IMG/VR virus record: IMGVR_UViG_3300045988_097328
From: a virus
DNA: 51,663 bases
Strand: one strand, 5' to 3'
Below are positions 21,752-51,663 of this stretch, one piece after another. Every line of letters starts with the position of its first letter. The first letter of the stretch is position 1. The notes beneath the pieces were generated by a model, which saw only the letters and a list, made by a program, of their open reading frames with translations, ran no database searches and was not told the DNA's origin. A program made the position numbers and the translations under genes.

Positions 21752-21780
21752 TTGACAAAACAGGTTGACGATGGTATAAT
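21752..21780 (+). promoter_or_regulatory. perfect sigma-70 promoter TTGACA-N17-TATAAT
   Basis: TTGACA 21752-21757, TATAAT 21775-21780; palindrome CAATCGttCGATTG at the predicted start site. Confidence 0.75.
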
Positions 21781-21786
21781 ACAATC

Positions 21787-21885
21787 GTTCGATTGCAAAT
21801 GCGGTCGTGGATTAAAAAGCTAAGATGAGCATTTCTGTGCTCAACGGGGGAAGGCATCGGCAGTAGTCGATGCCTTTTTCTTTTT
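21787..21885 (+). ncRNA. candidate small RNA of about 100 nt (promoter-to-terminator unit with no ORF)
   Basis: between the promoter at 21752 and terminator GGCATCG-gcagtagt-CGATGCC plus TTTTTCTTTTT (21853-21885); antisense to the 3' end of the minus gene 21841-22197. Confidence 0.5.
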
Positions 21886-22197
21886 CCGGCATTTCTGGAT
21901 TCGTTTAGCGTTTTCGCTGTACGGGGCAAGGCAATATCCGCCTTTTGTATATGGAAGATGGGAAAGGATGGTATCCGGCGTTACACCAAATTTCCGCGCT
22001 GCATCTTCAAGGCTGTCCCCTGCGGCAATGGCGGCAGCTATGGCGGCATCGTAATCGCTCAAAATGCCGTTGTCGATGAGGATGCGCCGCACACGGTATT
22101 CGGACAAGCCCAATTCGCGGGCAACCTGCTTTCTGGAATGCGTCTGGTTGTACAAGCCGATGACGCAAGCAATGTCTTTCTGAGTAAGTGGCTGCAA
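21841..22197 (-). CDS. DNA-binding protein with two HTH-like segments
   Basis: 118 aa; SRKQVARELGLSEYRVRRIL and LEDAARKFGVTPDTILSHL. Confidence 0.55.
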   Translation of the reverse strand: MQPLTQKDIACVIGLYNQTHSRKQVARELGLSEYRVRRILIDNGILSDYDAAIAAAIAAGDSLEDAARKFGVTPDTILSHLPYTKGGYCLAPYSENAKRIQKCRKKKKASTTADAFPR

Positions 22198-22212
22198 ATT
22201 GATTTTTCTCCT

Positions 22213-22644
22213 TTACGCAAGAAATATTTTCTCGTTTGTCCTTTTTTCTTCGGCTTCAAGGTCGATTGGACAGACTTTCTGCAAAGTTCCACCGGGAGAC
22301 AGACGAAGACCATCGAAGCGGATGCGCCCGGAGAACAGCCCTGCGACCGTCTCCTTTTGCGCTTCTGTCGCCGTGTAGGTTTCCGGCGTTTCCGCCGTGT
22401 GCAAATAGTTGTTTGCGTAGCCGCTCCAATTCCACGAGCGGAACACAATTTCGCCGGATTTGCAAATAGCAATTTCGAGCGTCAGCGGAATGCCCGCCGT
22501 CTCCCACGGTGCAATCCTACAAATAAGAGAATCGGGCGGGTCGTCGTCCCTTTGGCGGTCAAGGTCGATAACATACTCGTCGCCGGGGAAATAATAATCC
22601 TTGTCAACCAGATAGGTTTTGTCTTTCTTGATGCTAATTTTCAT
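22213..22644 (-). CDS. hypothetical protein (143 aa)
   Basis: AAAGGAG 7 nt before ATG 22644 (internal to track ORF 22213-22758). Confidence 0.55.
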   Translation of the reverse strand: MKISIKKDKTYLVDKDYYFPGDEYVIDLDRQRDDDPPDSLICRIAPWETAGIPLTLEIAICKSGEIVFRSWNWSGYANNYLHTAETPETYTATEAQKETVAGLFSGRIRFDGLRLSPGGTLQKVCPIDLEAEEKRTNEKIFLA

Positions 22645-22806
22645 TTTTTTGCTCCTTTTGCTCATTTGATTGTTTCGATGCTTTCCATTCGTCCATATAG
22701 CGAGCATAATTCTATCTTGTTCTCGGTTGCAACACACTGCGTAATACCGGTTTTTCACCTTTCCTGCCGGGGTTATACCGCCCCGCCCGGTATCGTCTCG
22801 TTGCCG

Positions 22807-23088
22807 TTAGTCGCCGATGATGGTCAGCATCCGCGTGTGGTGACTGCCGTTTGCAACCCAGCGCAAAGCTGGCTTGTCGTTGACGGAGGTCAGCACCTCA
22901 GACAGCAGATAATCTTGACCATCAAGGTTGAGGATGGGTTCGTCCACGACGTTTGCACCGGAAACGTTAGGGATGATGACACGGACGGTATCGCAGATGT
23001 TGGTAGCTTGGGCGAGGGTGTAGACGGTTTGCTTTTCGTGGGCAAGCAGCCCGTAGTTTGCGTAGATGGTCATCTCAACATTCTTCAT
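22807..23088 (-). CDS. hypothetical protein (93 aa), first gene of cassette A
   Basis: start fixed by the conserved leader ...GAAAGAGGTAAGAATT-ATG. Confidence 0.6.
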   Translation of the reverse strand: MKNVEMTIYANYGLLAHEKQTVYTLAQATNICDTVRVIIPNVSGANVVDEPILNLDGQDYLLSEVLTSVNDKPALRWVANGSHHTRMLTIIGD

Positions 23089-23174
23089 AATTCTTACCTC
23101 TTTCTGTCGGGTGCTTTTATTTTGTACCGCCCCTTGACATAATTTATTATAGCACAAGTTGCACAACTTGTCAA
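23089..23174 (-). promoter_or_regulatory. promoter-leader cassette A: TTGACA-N17-TATAAT with spacer palindrome and conserved 5' leader
   Basis: -35 at 23169-23174, -10 at 23146-23151 (minus strand); ACAAGTTG-CA-CAACTTGT at 23154-23171; leader GTCAAGGGGCGGTACAAAATAAAAGCACCCGACAGAAAGAGGTAA. Confidence 0.8.
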
Positions 23175-23181
23175 CACTTTT

Positions 23182-23355
23182 TCAAGATTTTTCGCAAGTT
23201 TTTTGCGTTCTTTCCGAAAGCCACTGCGATAGGGCAAGGCGGACAACCGCCGAATCACTTAGCCCAATTCGCTGCCCAATCGCCTTAATTTGCTCATTCT
23301 GCTCGTGCGTCACAATGACGTTCTTAACAATCCGATTTCCATCTTTTTTTAACAT
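23182..23355 (-). CDS. ribbon-helix-helix (CopG/Arc-like) DNA-binding protein, last gene of cassette B operon
   Basis: 57 aa from ATG 23355 (GGAGG 6 nt upstream); VIVTHEQNEQIKAIGQRIGLSDSAVVRLAL. Confidence 0.6.
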   Translation of the reverse strand: MLKKDGNRIVKNVIVTHEQNEQIKAIGQRIGLSDSAVVRLALSQWLSERTQKTCEKS

Positions 23356-23368
23356 TTTCATCCTCCTA

Positions 23369-23449
23369 TCAGTTAAGCAGATTATCAATTGCCATTGCGC
23401 GCGCTACGATTGGCGCAATGTCAACGCTGACGCGCCCTGCGTTCTTCAT
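23369..23449 (-). CDS. micro-ORF (26 aa) with a strong RBS
   Basis: AAAGGAG 7 nt before ATG 23449; MKNAGRVSVDIAPIVARAMAIDNLLN; stop 23369-23371. Confidence 0.3.
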   Translation of the reverse strand: MKNAGRVSVDIAPIVARAMAIDNLLN

Positions 23450-23481
23450 TGTGCTGCTCCTTTCATCGCCTAAAATGATTT

Positions 23482-23532
23482 CGCCGCGTTGCGGCGGCGG
23501 ATTTTTGTGCGGTCCGCCGCCGCAACGCGGCG
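23482..23532 (-). terminator. 20-bp perfect hairpin immediately after the stop of gene 23535-24173
   Basis: CGCCGCGTTGCGGCGGCGGA / TCCGCCGCCGCAACGCGGCG with an 11-nt loop; only a moderate U tract on the minus strand. Confidence 0.5.
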
Positions 23533-24235: not shown

Positions 24236-24712
24236 TTAGCGGGCTGTAAGCGTATCGATGATGTCCCTCGCCTCGGTGGCGGTTGAGACGACATAGGCAG
24301 CATATAGCCACTTATACGGAAACTTGTCAAGGTTTTGGCGAATAAATTCCGCTATGGTCACACCTGCTTTTTCCGCCGCCGCCGCAATCGCGGCTTGCTT
24401 GTCGGGGTCGTCGCGGGTAGCGATAGCATCCGCGACTGTCTTTTCGTGCTGCGCAACAAATTTCGCACGCAGGTCTGTTGCGTATTCGACTTGTTTTTCG
24501 CTCACGCCGTGAATGGTCGGAAGGCTTAATGCCGCCGCCGCTTCGCGCTGCTGCTTGCGCTGCTGCTTGCGGTAGCAGTCGGCGCAAAGAAGGGGATGAG
24601 CTTCCGCCCATTCCTTTTTGCTGTCCGCGTCCCGGCGATTGAAGCCGTCAATGCGGCGTTCAACGGTAGCGCCGCAATCAGGGCATTTGTAGGTGGCAAT
24701 TGCTTTTGCCAT
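24236..24712 (-). CDS. zinc-ribbon protein (158 aa), first gene of cassette B
   Basis: start set by the conserved leader; CPDCG...CADC. Confidence 0.6.
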   Translation of the reverse strand: MAKAIATYKCPDCGATVERRIDGFNRRDADSKKEWAEAHPLLCADCYRKQQRKQQREAAAALSLPTIHGVSEKQVEYATDLRAKFVAQHEKTVADAIATRDDPDKQAAIAAAAEKAGVTIAEFIRQNLDKFPYKWLYAAYVVSTATEARDIIDTLTAR

Positions 24713-24797
24713 GGTCATTACCTCTTTCCGTCCGGGGCTCTGTTTTGTACCGCCCCTTGACACTATGTATTATATCACAGGTTGCACAACTTGTCAA
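24713..24797 (-). promoter_or_regulatory. promoter-leader cassette B: TTGACA-N17-TATAAT with spacer palindrome and conserved leader
   Basis: -35 at 24792-24797, -10 at 24769-24774 (minus strand); ACAGGTTG-CA-CAACTTGT at 24777-24794. Confidence 0.8.
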
Positions 24798-30360: not shown

Positions 30361-30448
30361 TATATATCCATACTTGTGTGTAATATATATATATTATATA
30401 TCATACAGTGTAATATAAGCTTCTATACAGTACAAGTATGGATATATA
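30361..30448 (+). repeat. 17-bp perfect inverted repeat in nearly pure AT DNA
   Basis: TATATATCCATACTTGT (30361-30377) / ACAAGTATGGATATATA (30432-30448), 54-nt spacer. Confidence 0.9.
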
Positions 30449-30461
30449 AAAAATATATAAT

Positions 30462-30637
30462 AAAAGACCACTACTACCACCACAAGAACACATACTCGAC
30501 AGAGTGGGGTAGGGGGATAATAGGGGGTATAGAGTAATAGGGGGTATGGGGGAAGAGAGAAAAGGGGGGAAGAAGCGGGAGGGGAGAGGGACGGGCGGTG
30601 GTTTTGTGGTGGTGGCAGCGGCGGTGGTCTTTTTTTT
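30462..30637 (+). other. long imperfect hairpin enclosing a run of G3-G6 tracts and ending in T8
   Basis: arm AAAAGACCACTACTACCACCACAAG (30462-30486) pairs, with G.U pairs and a bulge, to 30603-30633; at least 10 G tracts in 30506-30598; T8 at 30630-30637. Confidence 0.7.
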
Positions 30638-30780
30638 ATCCAGCACCTTTCTGCGCATCCGCAGCATGGTCGTCTTCGCGGCTTCGCGAAATTGATAGTC
30701 ACGGGGCAGACCATTTTCGTGGTGTCGCGCAAATGGTTCTCACTGCCATTTTTGCCCAACAAAAAAATTAGCAGGGGTGC

Positions 30781-30809
30781 TTGACAAGCGGGGCAATCTG
30801 GCATATAAT
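30781..30809 (+). promoter_or_regulatory. perfect sigma-70 promoter with no downstream ORF
   Basis: TTGACA 30781-30786, N17, TATAAT 30804-30809; points into the antisense of the decayed repressor gene. Confidence 0.7.
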
Positions 30810-31286: not shown

Positions 31287-31315
31287 TTGACAAATAGAAC
31301 TGAAAGAAATATAAT
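31287..31315 (+). promoter_or_regulatory. perfect sigma-70 promoter for the 31358 gene
   Basis: TTGACA 31287-31292, N17, TATAAT 31310-31315. Confidence 0.75.
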
Positions 31316-33896: not shown

Positions 33897-33925
33897 TTGA
33901 CAGCAAGGTGACGGCACTATATAAT
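33897..33925 (+). promoter_or_regulatory. perfect sigma-70 promoter with direct-repeat operators
   Basis: TTGACA 33897-33902, N17, TATAAT 33920-33925; GGTGACGGCAC at 33907-33917 and 33934-33944. Confidence 0.75.
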
Positions 33926-33945
33926 AAAAGAGAGGTGACGGCACA

Positions 33946-34092
33946 ATGACGGCAGACAGCAGGAAAGTCACACTGCGAATGGGCGCGGGGCTTCATCGCA
34001 AGCTGCAAGTCCTTGCAGAGCGCGAAAACCGAAGCGTCAACCAGCAGATGATTCACATCATCCAGCACGCCATTGATGGGAGCGAGAAGTAG
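33946..34092 (+). CDS. ribbon-helix-helix (CopG-like) protein, 48 aa
   Basis: below the track cutoff; AGAGAGGTGA RBS; KVTLRMGAGLHRKLQVLAERENRSVNQQMIHIIQHAI. Confidence 0.6.
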   Translation: MTADSRKVTLRMGAGLHRKLQVLAERENRSVNQQMIHIIQHAIDGSEK

Positions 34093-34929: not shown

Positions 34930-34958
34930 TTGACATTCACGCAAAGTGAATGTATAAT
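34930..34958 (+). promoter_or_regulatory. perfect sigma-70 promoter with a spacer palindrome (early rightward promoter)
   Basis: TTGACA 34930-34935, N17, TATAAT 34953-34958; CATTCAC-gcaaa-GTGAATG at 34934-34952. Confidence 0.8.
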
Positions 34959-47583: not shown

Positions 47584-47610
47584 TCGTTGGGCGGTTTGCG
47601 GGAGGGGAAA

Positions 47611-48006
47611 ATGGTTGACTTAAAGCGGATGCGGTATCTCATCAGGCGGTATCCTATGGCTTGCTTGCGAGCAGAACAGGCGCGAATCCGGGCGCAGAAG
47701 CTGACGCGGACAATCAGCGACGCGCCGCGCGGGGGCGGAAGTATGAACAGCACGGAGGAAGGGCTGCTGTATCGCATCGAGGCACTGGAACGCAAGAAAG
47801 CAATCTGGGACGAGTTGTGCAGGATGCGCGAAGAGCTTGCGCCGCTGGTGGATGCGCTGGAAAGTCCGCTGGAAGTGCAGTGCATGAGAATGCGGTATCT
47901 GGAGGGAAGGAGCGTCCGGGAAATCAGCTACAATCTGGCGTATTCCGAGCAGCATGTTTTTCGCGTGATTGGTAACGCGGAGCGGAAAATCCAGAGCGCG
48001 GAATAA
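47611..48006 (+). CDS. sigma-70 region-4-like late transcription regulator (ArpU/RinA/DUF1492-like)
   Basis: GGGAGGGG RBS; ...VQCMRMRYLEGRSVREISYNLAYSEQHVFRVIGNAERKI. Confidence 0.5.
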   Translation: MVDLKRMRYLIRRYPMACLRAEQARIRAQKLTRTISDAPRGGGSMNSTEEGLLYRIEALERKKAIWDELCRMREELAPLVDALESPLEVQCMRMRYLEGRSVREISYNLAYSEQHVFRVIGNAERKIQSAE

Positions 48007-48011
48007 GGTGG

Positions 48012-48040
48012 TCGCGCATCGAAAGGTGCGCGATTTTCTT
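48012..48040 (+). terminator. rho-independent terminator ending the early/replication operon
   Basis: TCGCGCA-tcgaaagg-TGCGCGA then TTTTCTT. Confidence 0.8.
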
Positions 48041-48073
48041 TGCAAAAAATCTCAAAAAAATGTGATTTACCCC

Positions 48074-48160
48074 TTGACATATACGACAGTATATGTTATA
48101 ATAATTAGTGTCAAGGGGGCGGTACAAAATAAAGCACCCAGACAGAAAGAGGTAACGATT
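48074..48160 (+). promoter_or_regulatory. promoter-leader cassette C: TTGACA-N17-TATAAT with spacer palindrome and conserved leader
   Basis: TTGACA 48074-48079, TATAAT 48097-48102; ACATATAC-gaca-GTATATGT at 48077-48096; leader GTCAAGGGGGCGGTACAAAATAAAGCACCCAGACAGAAAGAGGTAA. Confidence 0.8.
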
Positions 48161-48547
48161 ATGGGCTTTTTGAATAATATGTTTGGCGACTTGGGCATCC
48201 ATCGCATTTCTAATAACTACTTCTCGATGAGCCATATAAACGAGGACGGGACGAAAATCATTGTCCGTGTCGATAGGGGACAGGTGTTCAAGACAAAGTA
48301 CGGTTACGGATTGATTCTCGACCAAAATCATGTTCAGTTTTTGAAGTCATGGGCGGTCAACGATAACTGGTACGGAATGTATATCATGCTGGATAAGCAG
48401 TATTTTACCCCGAAAGAATGGGGTGAGTTCGAGGACTATCCGGTAGAAAAAGAAAATCTTGACTTTGAAACATGGGTAAAAACTGCAAAAGAACAGGAGA
48501 ATATGGCAAAGAAAGACCGCATAAATTTTCAAGTTTACTGGCGTTAA
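48161..48547 (+). CDS. hypothetical protein (128 aa), first gene of cassette C
   Basis: start set by the conserved leader. Confidence 0.6.
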   Translation: MGFLNNMFGDLGIHRISNNYFSMSHINEDGTKIIVRVDRGQVFKTKYGYGLILDQNHVQFLKSWAVNDNWYGMYIMLDKQYFTPKEWGEFEDYPVEKENLDFETWVKTAKEQENMAKKDRINFQVYWR

Positions 48548-49399: not shown

Positions 49400-49413
49400 G
49401 AAGAGGATACAAA

Positions 49414-49632
49414 ATGCGTAAAGAGTATTACCAAGGCGACGTGTCAGTCCGAGCGATGCGGAAGTATCGCGAAAAAGAAGGAATCAAGACGGTGCGCTTC
49501 GACGTTCGCGCTGGGAGCAAAGAGGCGCTGGAAGAAGAAGCAAAGCGCCGTGGTCTTTCGGTGGCGCAGCTAATCGTTGATTCCGTAAACGCCTATGTCG
49601 GGCGTGAGATAATTGCAAACAAAAAACAATAA
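49414..49632 (+). CDS. ribbon-helix-helix-like DNA-binding protein, last gene of cassette C
   Basis: 72 aa; VRFDVRAGSKEALEEEAKRRGLSVAQLIVDSVNAYV. Confidence 0.5.
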   Translation: MRKEYYQGDVSVRAMRKYREKEGIKTVRFDVRAGSKEALEEEAKRRGLSVAQLIVDSVNAYVGREIIANKKQ

Positions 49633-49639
49633 TAGAATG

Positions 49640-49667
49640 GGCGCATCCAATGGGGGTGCGCCTTTTT
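49640..49667 (+). terminator. rho-independent terminator
   Basis: GGCGCA-11 nt-TGCGCC then TTTTT. Confidence 0.75.
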
Positions 49668-49726
49668 CGTTGCGAAAAAAGTTTGCAAAAATCGCAGAAA
49701 AAATGTGATTTACCCCTTGACATATA

Positions 49727-49803
49727 CGGCAGTATATGCTATAATAATAGTGTCAGGAGGGCGGTACAAAAAATAAAGCCCCCGACAGAAAGAGGTAATG
49801 ATT
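49727..49803 (+). promoter_or_regulatory. promoter-leader cassette D: TTGACA-N17-TATAAT with spacer palindrome and conserved leader
   Basis: TTGACA 49727-49732, TATAAT 49750-49755; ACATATAC-ggca-GTATATGC; leader GTCAGGAGGGCGGTACAAAAAATAAAGCCCCCGACAGAAAGAGGTAA. Confidence 0.8.
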
Positions 49804-50007
49804 ATGAAGACCATCAAGCTGAGCACCAAGGCGCTGGAAACCCTCAACCGCATCGGTGACTATCCCACCCGAAATTGGATTTACGTCCGTGATTATTATA
49901 CTGGCAAGTACAAGCGCATCTCGAAAGCAGTGTTTGATGACCCGGCGACGGTTTGCTTTAAGATGCAGACCGAGTGGGAATACATCAAAGTCAAAGCGAT
50001 AAAGTAA
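49804..50007 (+). CDS. hypothetical protein (67 aa), cassette D
   Basis: start set by the conserved leader. Confidence 0.55.
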   Translation: MKTIKLSTKALETLNRIGDYPTRNWIYVRDYYTGKYKRISKAVFDDPATVCFKMQTEWEYIKVKAIK

Positions 50008-50042
50008 GACTTGTTCACACAATCCCGCCTAATCGCAACAAA

Positions 50043-50374: not shown

Positions 50375-51663
50375 TTGCTTGAATGGAACGGCATCAAAAT
50401 CGTCGAAACGGATTGTATGCTGCCGGTTGACCGCGTAAAACCCTACGCGAGAAACGCAAAGCGGCATCCGCAGGAGCAAATCGACGAAATCAAGGCAAGC
50501 ATCAAGCGGTTCGGCATGGACGACCCCATCGGCATCTGGGGCAAGGAAAACCTGATTGTCGAGGGTCACGGGCGGCTGGAAGCGTGCAAGCAGCTCGGCA
50601 TCCCGACAGTGCCGTGCATCAGGCTCGACCACCTTACGAAGGAAGAGCGCAAGGCGTACACTCTGGCGCACAACAAAACCAACATGGACAGCGGCTGGGA
50701 CTTTACGGCGCTTGACCAAGAGCTGGCGGAAATCGTTAATATTGACATGAGCGAATTCGGCTTCGGAGCCTCCCTTCCTGAAGAAGAAATCTGGCAAGCA
50801 AACGAAAACAGCATATCATTGACTGACAAATATACATTCGCGCCATTTTCTGTCCTTGATGGCAGGAGTGGAGAATGGCAGAAACGGAAAAATCAATGGC
50901 ATTCCGTTATTGGCGACAGCAGGGAAGGACGAGCTGATTCGCTAATTGGCAGTCTCGGTTCTCTTGCAAAGGCGCAAGGGCATAAATACAGCGGGACAAG
51001 TGAGTTTGACCCGGTTCTCTGCGAGATTTTGGTAAAATGGTTCTGCCCCCCCAATGGGAAAATCGTTGACCCGTTTGCTGGCGGAAACGTTCGCGGCGTA
51101 ATTTCCGCAATCCTCGGCAACGAGTATCACGGAGTAGATATTCGCCCGGAGCAGATTGCAGAAAATGAATCGTCTCTACAAAAAATCCGTGCAGATTACG
51201 CACAAGCGCCGAAGTGGCATTGCGGCGACAGCGCGAATATTGACGCGATGCTCGAAAAAGAAGCACCGTTTGATTTTTTGTTGATGTGTCCGCCGTATGG
51301 AGACTTAGAAAAGTACAGCGACAATCCAAAAGACCTATCAACGATGAAGTACGAGGATTTCATCGCTGCGTATAGAGACATAATCGAAAAGACGGCAGCG
51401 CTTCTTTCGGAAAACGCGTTTTGCGCCGTAGTTGTATCCGACATACGCGACAGAAAGGGAATGTATCGCGGATTCACTTCTGAAACAATCAAGGCATTTG
51501 CAGACTGCAACGTAAAACTATATAACGATATGGTAAAACTAGACACGACTTGCGGGGCTGCTGTTCGCGTCGAAAAACAATTCCGCGATATGCGCAAAGT
51601 CGTGCGTGTCCATCAAAACGTTCTTGTTTTCGTAAAGGGCGACCCTCGTAAAATCAAAAAAGG
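50375..51663 (+). CDS. ParB-like nuclease domain fused to a SAM-dependent DNA methyltransferase (continues at 1-180; 449 aa from TTG 50375)
   Basis: ORF absent from the track because it runs off the window; GAGGAGGG 7 nt before TTG 50375 (in-frame ATG at 50276 is an alternative); ParB box KPYARNAKRHP...LIVEGHGRLEA; motif I VDPFAGGNVRG; motif IV LLMCPPYGD. Confidence 0.8.
   Translation, partial: MLEWNGIKIVETDCMLPVDRVKPYARNAKRHPQEQIDEIKASIKRFGMDDPIGIWGKENLIVEGHGRLEACKQLGIPTVPCIRLDHLTKEERKAYTLAHNKTNMDSGWDFTALDQELAEIVNIDMSEFGFGASLPEEEIWQANENSISLTDKYTFAPFSVLDGRSGEWQKRKNQWHSVIGDSREGRADSLIGSLGSLAKAQGHKYSGTSEFDPVLCEILVKWFCPPNGKIVDPFAGGNVRGVISAILGNEYHGVDIRPEQIAENESSLQKIRADYAQAPKWHCGDSANIDAMLEKEAPFDFLLMCPPYGDLEKYSDNPKDLSTMKYEDFIAAYRDIIEKTAALLSENAFCAVVVSDIRDRKGMYRGFTSETIKAFADCNVKLYNDMVKLDTTCGAAVRVEKQFRDMRKVVRVHQNVLVFVKGDPRKIKK
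51545..51663. repeat. second copy of the terminal direct repeat
   Basis: identical to 1-119. Confidence 0.95.

Follow-up and report, generated by a model that had tools for sequence, protein, structure and literature searches.

Why would one promoter and one 5′ leader be repeated in front of genes that are unrelated to each other? This question is raised by positions 48,074 to 48,160 of IMG/VR virus record IMGVR_UViG_3300045988_097328, a stretch of 51,663 nucleotides that was analysed in full and is referred to below as the window. The segment holds a consensus promoter and a leader of ~57 nt, and the same module occurs four times in the genome, as copies A and B on the minus strand and copies C and D on the plus strand (Table 1). 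We propose, with moderate confidence, that each copy is a self-contained, repressor-controlled and portable promoter–leader cassette that heads exchangeable cargo genes, and that the hairpin in its leader acts as a 5′ stabilizer of the mRNA. The source of the four cassettes is a temperate siphovirus-like phage of the human gut.

Four copies of a promoter and leader

An initial sequence-only reading had described four copies of the module; all are present, with the start of copy D at 49717 rather than at the 49727 given there. The perfect TTGACA-N17-TATAAT reported for each copy is found in all four, which also share the TG of an extended -10 element (TGnTATAAT). The core promoter matches the consensus at 12 of 12 positions plus the TG, with phased A-tracts upstream. 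Nine perfect TTGACA-N17-TATAAT sites were found where ~0.006 would be expected by chance (2 x 51.6 kb), and five of the nine are leaderless. A profile hidden Markov model (HMM) of the leader detects exactly four sites in the window (E-values 1e-14 to 1e-18; next 0.37). In every copy 5-6 nt separate the -10 from the motif (G/A)TGTCA, after which come the conserved block and the ATG. Between copies the leader is 0.77-0.91 identical and the first 90 nt of coding sequence 0.44-0.58, which is alignment background, in agreement with the earlier remark that the leader is conserved far better than the genes that follow. Promoter spacers of different classes share 0.35-0.47 identity. A mirror of the sequence around the -35 and -10, CCCCTTGACA / TGTCAAGGGG, had also been pointed out; copy C does have it, but only 14 of 109 unique cassettes of the family carry it in perfect form and the A/B type lacks it, and as it is not conserved we regard it as incidental.

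A predicted hairpin at the 5′ end of the transcript

What does the leader contain? Its ~57 nt comprise one unpaired purine, a hairpin of 34-38 nt, a Shine-Dalgarno sequence and the 8 nt that precede the ATG; hairpin and ribosome site thus account for its whole length and leave room for nothing else. RNAfold predicts the same architecture in all four copies: an outer helix UGUC/GACA, a bulge or internal loop of 1-3 nt and an inner helix GGGGC/GCCCC that closes an A-rich loop of 13-16 nt, with energies of -9 to -17 kcal/mol. The 5′-terminal hairpin proposed by the sequence-only reading is therefore upheld as a prediction, and the outer helix makes its stem longer than claimed. The hairpin ends on the A with which the Shine-Dalgarno AGAAAGAGG begins; this ribosome site is single-stranded in the predicted folds, and the 3′ third of the leader is an extended Shine-Dalgarno of Gram-positive type. 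The helix begins 6-7 nt past the -10 hexamer (U48109 in C, U49751 in D). Promoter geometry suggests G48108 or G48110 as the transcription start of cassette C, and with a start 6-8 nt past the -10 the hairpin would begin at +1 to +2 of the transcript.

No Rfam family was found in a scan of the window at gathering thresholds, and a permissive scan of cassette C (E up to 10) gave as its best match Clostridium-PBP, at 20.6 bits where the threshold is 94.4 (E 0.93), in line with the earlier impression that this is not a known RNA family. Judged from the sequence, the hairpin does not qualify as an intrinsic terminator or attenuator, being followed by GAAAGAGG and not by a U-tract. Neither the minimum-free-energy nor the centroid folds show the Shine-Dalgarno region in an alternative pairing.

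Spread and retention of the leader

Is the block only a recent duplication with no wider conservation, as the sequence-only reading had allowed? Two patterns were searched in IMG/VR: the first, GGCGGTACAAAA-N5-20-GAAAGAGG, returned 88 stretches, and the second, with inner stem and loop left free, at least 116. Over 173 fetched loci the leader HMM recognized 293-299 copies on ~60 IMG/VR contigs, typically two per locus and at most three, and the family holds 82 unique hairpin variants. Duplication alone was not borne out by these ~300 copies, which precede many different genes on ~60 contigs of related phages. A single hairpin fold is predicted for 78 of the 82 unique variants (median -11.2 kcal/mol, z ~ -3), with the Shine-Dalgarno open.

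A leader-independent sample of 57 loci was fetched via the late-activator-like protein encoded upstream of cassette C (75-99% identity). In 53 of them a perfect or near-perfect promoter lies directly after the activator-like gene, and these 53 promoters are followed by a full leader in 48 cases, a truncated leader in three and a divergent one in one. Conservation in this sample is high from the upstream terminator across the A-tracts and the promoter to the leader, and drops straight after the Shine-Dalgarno.

Apparent compensatory changes in the stem are limited to two divergent homologues. One, L201, encodes an activator-like protein 75% identical to that of the window and carries UGUAAGGG-17 nt-CCCUUACA, a perfect 8-bp helix in which A-U replaces the C-G of the outer helix and the AA that is bulged elsewhere takes part in pairing. 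A search for more hairpins of this type (TATAAT..TGTAAGGG..CCCTTACA) led to one other phage species on four contigs, an ambiguous match with an ATG after GGGGGAG inside the 'loop', which may be coding. The other homologue, L094 (IMGVR_UViG_3300045988_127823, 118 kb, 38% G+C), has the hairpin UGUC-AAGA-GGGGA-loop-UCCCC-GAGC-GACA, where the loop-closing C-G is replaced by A-U; its cassette is 66-70% identical to those of the window, against 43-50% for leaderless promoters.

The L094 locus (12.8 kb, minus strand) is remarkable in its own right: ~17 consensus promoters lie in 10 kb, ~0.4-0.7 kb apart, each with an aaaaattttt..a-tract and a purine-rich leader, and ~9 have G-run/C-run hairpins with differing purine-rich loops. 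It looks like the early-gene array of a large low-G+C phage with related cassettes.

Cargo exchange at the leader edge

The boundaries of homology were mapped by BLASTN of both cassette regions against all related loci. Homology between relatives stops at the Shine-Dalgarno/ATG (Table 1), so that the cassette forms a constant junction of swappable cargo. Few loci share the cargo of the window (A, 2; A2, 0; B2, 1; C, 3; C2, 4; D, 3; B, 16), and the small ribbon-helix-helix (RHH) gene C3 at 49414-49632 is common to 46 related loci. The kept units consist of small gene, terminator in some cases, promoter and leader, and span 49413-49809 and 23077-23397. Behind the leader, the first genes belong to at least 17 unrelated families of 56-196 amino acids (aa); a Pfam search with 10 of the 17 gave no match, and the cargo proteins of the window have no Pfam, PHROG-function or PDB match. 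Several cargo proteins look rich in Asp and Glu when their sequences are read by eye. One cargo family is found behind different promoter-spacer types, and leader A is nearer to leader C (0.91) than to leader B (0.77), although A and B have a common spacer. Leader similarity is therefore independent of promoter class, which indicates that the parts have been reassorted. From these comparisons the cassette appears to be the boundary at which relatives exchange cargo.

Putative operators in the promoter spacers

A binding site for a shared regulator had been envisaged within the leader; the evidence places it instead in the promoter spacers, whose palindromes are likely to be the putative sites and whose type tracks the adjacent RHH alleles. 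Each spacer is palindromic, with 8-bp half-sites that fill the 17 nt, in A/B (type T2) and in C/D (type T1), and further types occur in relatives (Table 1). As the leader is the same across four operator types, it is not the RHH target.

Two small genes of the window are the presumed repressors, C3 for T1 and RHH2 for T2. C3 matches Pfam RHH_1 (E 0.006), an Arc-like PHROG and, by profile, the RHH antitoxin VapB26 (E 0.035); its AlphaFold2 model shows a strand at 27-32 and then two helices (beta-alpha-alpha), with a predicted local distance difference test score (pLDDT) of 61. RHH2 has no Pfam hit and a profile match to CopG-like ORF56 (E 0.058), and an N-terminal extended segment followed by two helices in its model (pLDDT 70) suggests the same fold. 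A profile-profile comparison of C3 with RHH2 gave no significant similarity. When the presumed DNA-reading strand was compared with the next promoter, allele KTVRFDV occurred with T1 in 35 of 36 cases, KNVIVT with T2 in 24 of 24, KC[IV]I[VL]T with T3 in 11 of 11 and KITIEV with T4 in six of seven.

A model for the cassette

How might these parts work together? In the model that we favour, a cassette would consist, in this order, of a terminator (C and D only), phased UP-like A-tracts, a perfect extended -10 sigma-A/sigma-70 promoter with an operator as its spacer, and a 5′ untranslated region (UTR) in which a hairpin starts at ~+2 and is directly followed by an unpaired, extended Shine-Dalgarno. 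The operator would be bound by a small RHH repressor from the same array, and the cassettes would drive short operons of small genes without database match. Upon entry or induction, the consensus promoter would yield a burst of transcription. The 5′ hairpin, together with a ribosome on the strong Shine-Dalgarno, would then block 5′-end-dependent decay (by RNase J1/Y in Firmicutes, by RNase E/RppH elsewhere) and secure the translation of any gene plugged in behind it. Finally, RHH protein made from the first operon would shut the promoters that bear its operator. Relatives retain the unit of RHH gene, promoter and leader and would swap the cargo via homologous recombination, the cassette doubling as a shuffling linker. 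The layout of the parts, their broad conservation, the breakpoints and the match of alleles to operators are observed; we infer the transcription start, the binding of RHH proteins to the operators and the timing of expression, and a 5′ mRNA stabilizer would be the most economical reading of the hairpin.

Relation to known systems

Cassettes of comparable layout were described in T4-type phages as promoter-early stem-loop (PeSL) elements, which combine an AT-rich region, a strong sigma-70 promoter, a GGGG...CCCC stem-loop, a Shine-Dalgarno and the ATG (Arbiol et al. 2010, PMC2839356; Comeau et al. 2014, PMC4122927). Their stem-loop can take any of five positions, and crossovers fall between -10 and ATG (PMC2839356); PeSLs reside in T4-type myoviruses, form mini-circles, and their stem-loop is assumed to be a terminator or attenuator of upstream transcription. 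The cassettes of the window share with them an AT-rich upstream region, a near-consensus sigma-70-type promoter, a G-run/C-run stem-loop, here GGGGC/GCCCC plus UGUC/GACA, and then a Shine-Dalgarno, AGAAAGAGG-N8-ATG, all within ~100-150 bp. They too occur in multiple copies per genome, in variable regions and ahead of small genes without database match; differences between close relatives start and stop at them; and in one PeSL subclass the stem-loop lies between -10 and Shine-Dalgarno, as it does here. Several features set them apart. PeSLs belong to lytic T4-type myoviruses, whereas the phage studied here is temperate, siphovirus-like, ~51.5 kb in size and probably infects a gut Firmicute; it has just four copies, in two arrays; its spacers hold a repressor palindrome that goes with a neighbouring RHH gene, a feature absent from PeSLs; and there is no sequence homology between the two sets of cassettes. 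Separate canonical terminators stand upstream of C and D only, and these, together with the missing U-tract, make a PeSL-style terminator or attenuator an unlikely role for the hairpin.

A second parallel is provided by acr-aca operons. Aca14, a regulator of the RHH type, binds to an inverted repeat placed over the -10; its own operon and a neighbouring anti-defence operon are repressed in this way (PMC13551039). Here too the promoter is very strong and its core is overlapped by an inverted repeat, which recurs at a neighbouring operon; the operon layout also agrees, with variable small cargo followed by a conserved small DNA-binding regulator (here presumed), and with a conserved 5′ UTR hairpin. 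Unlike in those systems, no cargo gene matches a known anti-defence protein, and the hairpin does not mimic the operator, being common to four operator types.

Leaders with a 5′-terminal stabilizer are exemplified by that of T7 gene 10. In the part of the literature referenced in PMC3997798, the E. coli ompA hp1, the B. subtilis aprE leader and the cryIIIA STAB-SD are established stabilizers made of a 5′ stem-loop and a ribosome-binding site. As in the ompA/aprE type, our hairpin lies 1-2 nt from the predicted 5′ end and precedes a strong unpaired Shine-Dalgarno, in a short leader (~50 nt) that is independent of the following gene. It differs in its unusually large (13-16 nt), A-rich loop with a conserved 5′ half, and shares no sequence similarity with them. 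The arrays also recall morons, as independent transcription units for accessory genes between conserved modules, C and D each with promoter and terminator; morons, however, are not defined by a shared flanking cassette, and here it is the regulatory part that is conserved and repeated and the genes that vary. By analogy, then, the element is best seen as a variant of PeSL-, acr-aca- and 5′-stabilizer-like designs and not as a new kind.

Objections and alternative explanations

A number of observations weigh against the proposed model. The 5′ end of the transcript is a predicted one. In three orthologues of C (L147, L184 and L202) the leader ends after GTGTCAGGAGGGC and the ATG is joined to it directly; GGAGG of the hairpin's 5′ arm then serves as the Shine-Dalgarno, and these loci form a natural 'hairpin-less' control. 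Covariation is weak, as the sequence-only reading had anticipated from four copies: RNAalifold found no compensatory pair in 40 unique leaders, where one-sided stem changes keep the pair by wobble in four and break it in three. The alignment made for this by MAFFT set the inner stem out of register, which is why folds were counted sequence by sequence. The common variants GTGCCA and GTATCA disrupt the outer helix. Orthologous leaders are 91-97% identical and third codon positions 76-93%; within so shallow a clade the leader does not stand clearly above third positions, and the orthologues alone do not demonstrate purifying selection on it. The 5′ half of the loop, GGUACAAAA, is kept in ~56 of 63 unique members (~89%) among the matches listed, the loop being unconstrained by the search pattern, and a conserved loop of 13-16 nt exceeds what a simple stabilizer needs. 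On the side of the repressors, the scores behind the RHH fold of both genes are weak, and the association of alleles with operators could partly reflect physical linkage.

The conserved loop is the natural starting point for a different view, one that makes the hairpin an RNA operator: some RNA-binding factor, of phage or host origin, would read the loop (GGUACAAAA...) and the stem and co-regulate translation or decay of the four operons. A UACAA-like loop motif survives in the divergent L201 copy, a single leader placed over four DNA operators is what a common second layer of control would look like, and Aca2 and Aca1 offer a precedent in that they bind 5′ UTR hairpins of acr-aca mRNAs (PMC13551039). 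Yet the hairpin resembles none of the spacer operators, which makes mimicry of the Aca2 type by an RHH protein unlikely, and no significant RNA motif is reported for the RHH family of Aca14 (PMC13551039). The loops of the related L094 array vary freely, no candidate RNA-binding protein was identified, and the shallow divergence of the clade can itself explain the conservation of the loop. We consider an RNA operator unlikely. The same low standing applies to a bolder scheme that joins both levels, with the leader as an RNA handle through which an as yet unnamed factor would exert joint post-transcriptional control over interchangeable anti-defence genes, and the unit of RHH gene, promoter and leader as a platform on which temperate phages of gut Firmicutes capture genes through homology, in the manner of integrons; it is put forward here as a speculation.

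Could the leader instead act as DNA? It might be a ~50-bp stretch of homology that gene conversion keeps uniform, for recombination between cassettes, perhaps with its G-run/C-run stem-loop read by a recombination protein, and the RNA hairpin would then be incidental. The position of the breakpoints at the 3′ edge of the leader, the failure of leader similarity to track promoter class and the mosaic combinations of operator type, leader subtype and cargo are all as this idea would have it, and the PeSL authors proposed likewise for GGGG...CCCC stem-loops, with crossovers between -10 and ATG (PMC2839356). For recombination, however, homology suffices and a hairpin is needless; longer homology is already available in the flanking late-activator-like and RHH genes; divergent homologues appear to keep the hairpin via compensatory changes; and its placement exactly between the predicted start site and the Shine-Dalgarno suits a role in RNA. 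A purely DNA-based function is hence doubtful in our judgement.

Still less probable is a leader with no function at all, a hitch-hiking remnant of a recent cassette duplication. The clade is shallow, some copies carry pair-breaking mutations and a few cassettes have lost most of the leader; against this, the two cassette classes of the window are 0.35-0.47 identical in the spacer (random level) and 0.53-0.57 upstream, yet 0.81-0.91 in the leader, the leader is retained at 48 of 53 orthologous sites, and the helix is retained in divergent copies. The idea of a ligand- or protein-sensing riboswitch or transcription attenuator deserves hardly any credence, since a conserved, structured 5′ UTR directly before the Shine-Dalgarno is offset by the lack of an Rfam family even at E up to 10 (best E 0.93), by the simplicity of the element, one hairpin that lacks both a U-tract and, in the predicted folds, any alternative Shine-Dalgarno pairing, and by cargo so unrelated between copies that metabolite control fits poorly.

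What are the implications of the cassette model? The leader and the repressor-bearing perfect promoter (~150 bp) form a sequence-defined marker for accessory genes of widespread temperate phages of the human gut. These genes may well be anti-defence or superinfection genes, and use of the marker parallels the guilt by association that led from aca genes to anti-CRISPRs. The PeSL idea of regulatory cassettes as linkers of modular exchange would extend beyond lytic T4-type phages to temperate siphoviruses, where the linker role appears to be combined with switching of repressor-operator specificity, four to five operator types being paired with RHH alleles. As a compact module of promoter, hairpin and Shine-Dalgarno, the cassette is in addition a candidate for a portable part that would give high expression in Gram-positive gut bacteria. 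Current understanding is not overturned by any of this, and a function of the leader in the RNA is putative.

Genome and host context

The window begins and ends with the same 119 nt (1-119 and 51545-51663), which marks it as a circularly closed assembly of ~51,544 bp. It encodes a large terminase, portal, major capsid protein, tape-measure protein and amidase-like lysin, along with a tyrosine integrase and a Cro/CI-type helix-turn-helix (HTH) protein. Its large terminase shares 48% identity with the terminases of Enterococcus and Lactococcus siphophages; no GenBank phage matches the window at the nucleotide level. The exact major capsid protein is present solely in metagenome assemblies, the sole match of the lysin is an unannotated human-faecal phage, and a look-up of the integrase found no record. 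Among 185,579 species-representative bacterial genomes, the leader pattern had only two chance matches, in coding or unrelated sequence, and the scan yielded neither a prophage copy nor a host. Terminase similarity and the style of promoter and Shine-Dalgarno point to a Firmicute host; TG-extended promoters and the ribosome site AGAAAGAGG are consistent with a Gram-positive one. AGAAAGAGG is one nucleotide shorter than AGAAAGGAGG, the complement of the Bacillus-type 16S 3′ end.

The two arrays, of two cassettes each, occupy the two accessory regions of the genome. A and B, both directed leftward, have the lysis module on one side and a cluster of rightward genes, on the side of the integrase, on the other; C and D are sited between the late-activator-like gene (47587-48006), so called for its weak Sigma70_r4/DUF1492 match, and the packaging end.

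Table 1. Coordinates of the cassettes, their parts and neighbours in the window, breakpoints of homology with related loci, and operator types.
Feature	Position	Strand	Description
Intrinsic terminator upstream of cassette C	48010..48043	+	11-bp stem then T run; ends gene 47587-48006
A-tract, UP-like region of C	48044..48073	+	TTTGCAAAAAATCTCAAAAAAATGTGATTTACCCC, direct reading; kept in 38 unique orthologous copies
Promoter, copy C	48074..48102	+	-35 48074-48079, -10 48097-48102, ATG 48161; TTGACA-N17-TGTTATAAT; spacer palindrome ACATATAC-N4-GTATATGT, operator type T1
Hairpin C (predicted)	48109..48144	+	UGUC-AA-GGG.GC (13-nt loop GGUACAAAAUAAA) GC.CCC-A-GACA; RNAfold -12.5 kcal/mol
Shine-Dalgarno and ATG of cargo C	48144..48163	+	extended Shine-Dalgarno AGAAAGAGG, 8-nt spacer, ATG
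Cargo gene C	48161-48547	+	128 aa, no family
Breakpoints, copy C	48149-48163		41 of 43 homology blocks end here
RHH gene C3	49414..49632	+	72 aa; last gene of operon C, before D; presumed T1 repressor
Intrinsic terminator, operon C / cassette D boundary	49639..49669	+	
Promoter, copy D	49717..49745	+	-35 49717-49722, -10 49740-49745, ATG 49804; TTGACA-N17-TGCTATAAT; spacer palindrome CATATAC-N4-GTATATG (T1)
Hairpin D (predicted)	49751..49787	+	UGUC-A-GG-A-GGGC (15-nt loop) GCCCCC-GACA; RNAfold -14.5 kcal/mol, z -2.4
Shine-Dalgarno and ATG of cargo D	49787..49806	+	extended Shine-Dalgarno
Cargo gene D	49804-50007	+	67 aa, no family
Breakpoints, copy D	49809		34 homology blocks end here; homology returns at 50020
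Promoter, copy B	24769..24797	-	-35 24797-24792, -10 24774-24769, ATG 24712; TTGACA-N17-TGATATAAT; spacer palindrome ACAAGTTG-TG-CAACCTGT, operator type T2
Hairpin B (predicted)	24729..24762	-	UGUC-AA-GGGGC (13-nt loop) GCCCC-G-GACG, U.G closing pair; RNAfold -16.6 kcal/mol
Shine-Dalgarno and ATG of cargo B	24710..24729	-	GGAAAGAGG
Cargo gene B	24236-24712	-	158 aa, zinc-ribbon-like, phrog_16123
Breakpoints, copy B	24718/24719		24 homology blocks start here
RHH2 gene	23182..23355	-	57 aa; directly upstream of promoter A; presumed T2 repressor
Promoter, copy A	23146..23174	-	-35 23174-23169, -10 23151-23146, ATG 23088; TTGACA-N17-TGCTATAAT; spacer palindrome ACAAGTTG-TG-CAACTTGT (T2)
Hairpin A (predicted)	23105..23139	-	UGUC-AA-GGGGC (14-nt loop) GC(A)CCC-GACA; RNAfold -9.1 kcal/mol
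Shine-Dalgarno and ATG of cargo A	23086..23105	-	AGAAAGAGG
Cargo gene A	22807-23088	-	93 aa, no family
Breakpoints, copy A	23077-23094		39 of 41 homology blocks start here
Operator T1			CATATAC-N4-GTATATG; C, D
Operator T2			ACAAGTTG-N2-CAACTTGT; A, B
Operator T3			ACAAGGTAT/ATACCTTGT; relatives
Operator T4			CATATT-N6-AATATG; relatives
Operator, fifth type			CATAGT-N6-ACTATG; L201

Other features of the window

Near the A operon, and convergent with it, a fifth perfect promoter (21752-21885, plus strand; TTGACA-N17-TGGTATAAT) precedes ~95 nt with no credible open reading frame (ORF; at most 12 codons) and a terminator, GGCATCGGCAGTAGTCGATGCC plus a T run, which makes the transcript a candidate small RNA. 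Its region is present in ~8 related loci only, and as a partner of the leader, with which it has 7-9 nt of purine/pyrimidine complementarity by eye, it was rejected. On the plus strand at 21958-23142, a 394-aa ORF of low coding score runs antisense to cargo A and A2 and overlaps leader A; it is probably spurious. A 26-codon ORF (MKNAGRVSVDIAPIVARAMAIDNLLN) lies at 23370-23451 on the minus strand, between a bidirectional terminator-like hairpin (23480-23501) and the RHH-like gene.

At 33897-34092 (plus strand) a perfect promoter without the leader has GGTGACGGCAC in its spacer, repeated directly after the -10; the gene behind it encodes a 48-aa Arc-like ribbon-helix-helix protein (Pfam Arc, E 5e-4), and the pair looks like another small autoregulated unit. 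The immunity and early region holds more perfect or 11/12 promoters on the plus strand, at 34930-34958, 30781, 31287 and 32297. The promoter at 30781 lies within the start of a minus-strand ORF (30394-30804), that at 31287 is upstream of a gene for an HTH_3 plus KilAC/ANT-like protein, and the spacer of that at 34930 contains the palindrome ACATTCAC-N5-GTGAATGT.

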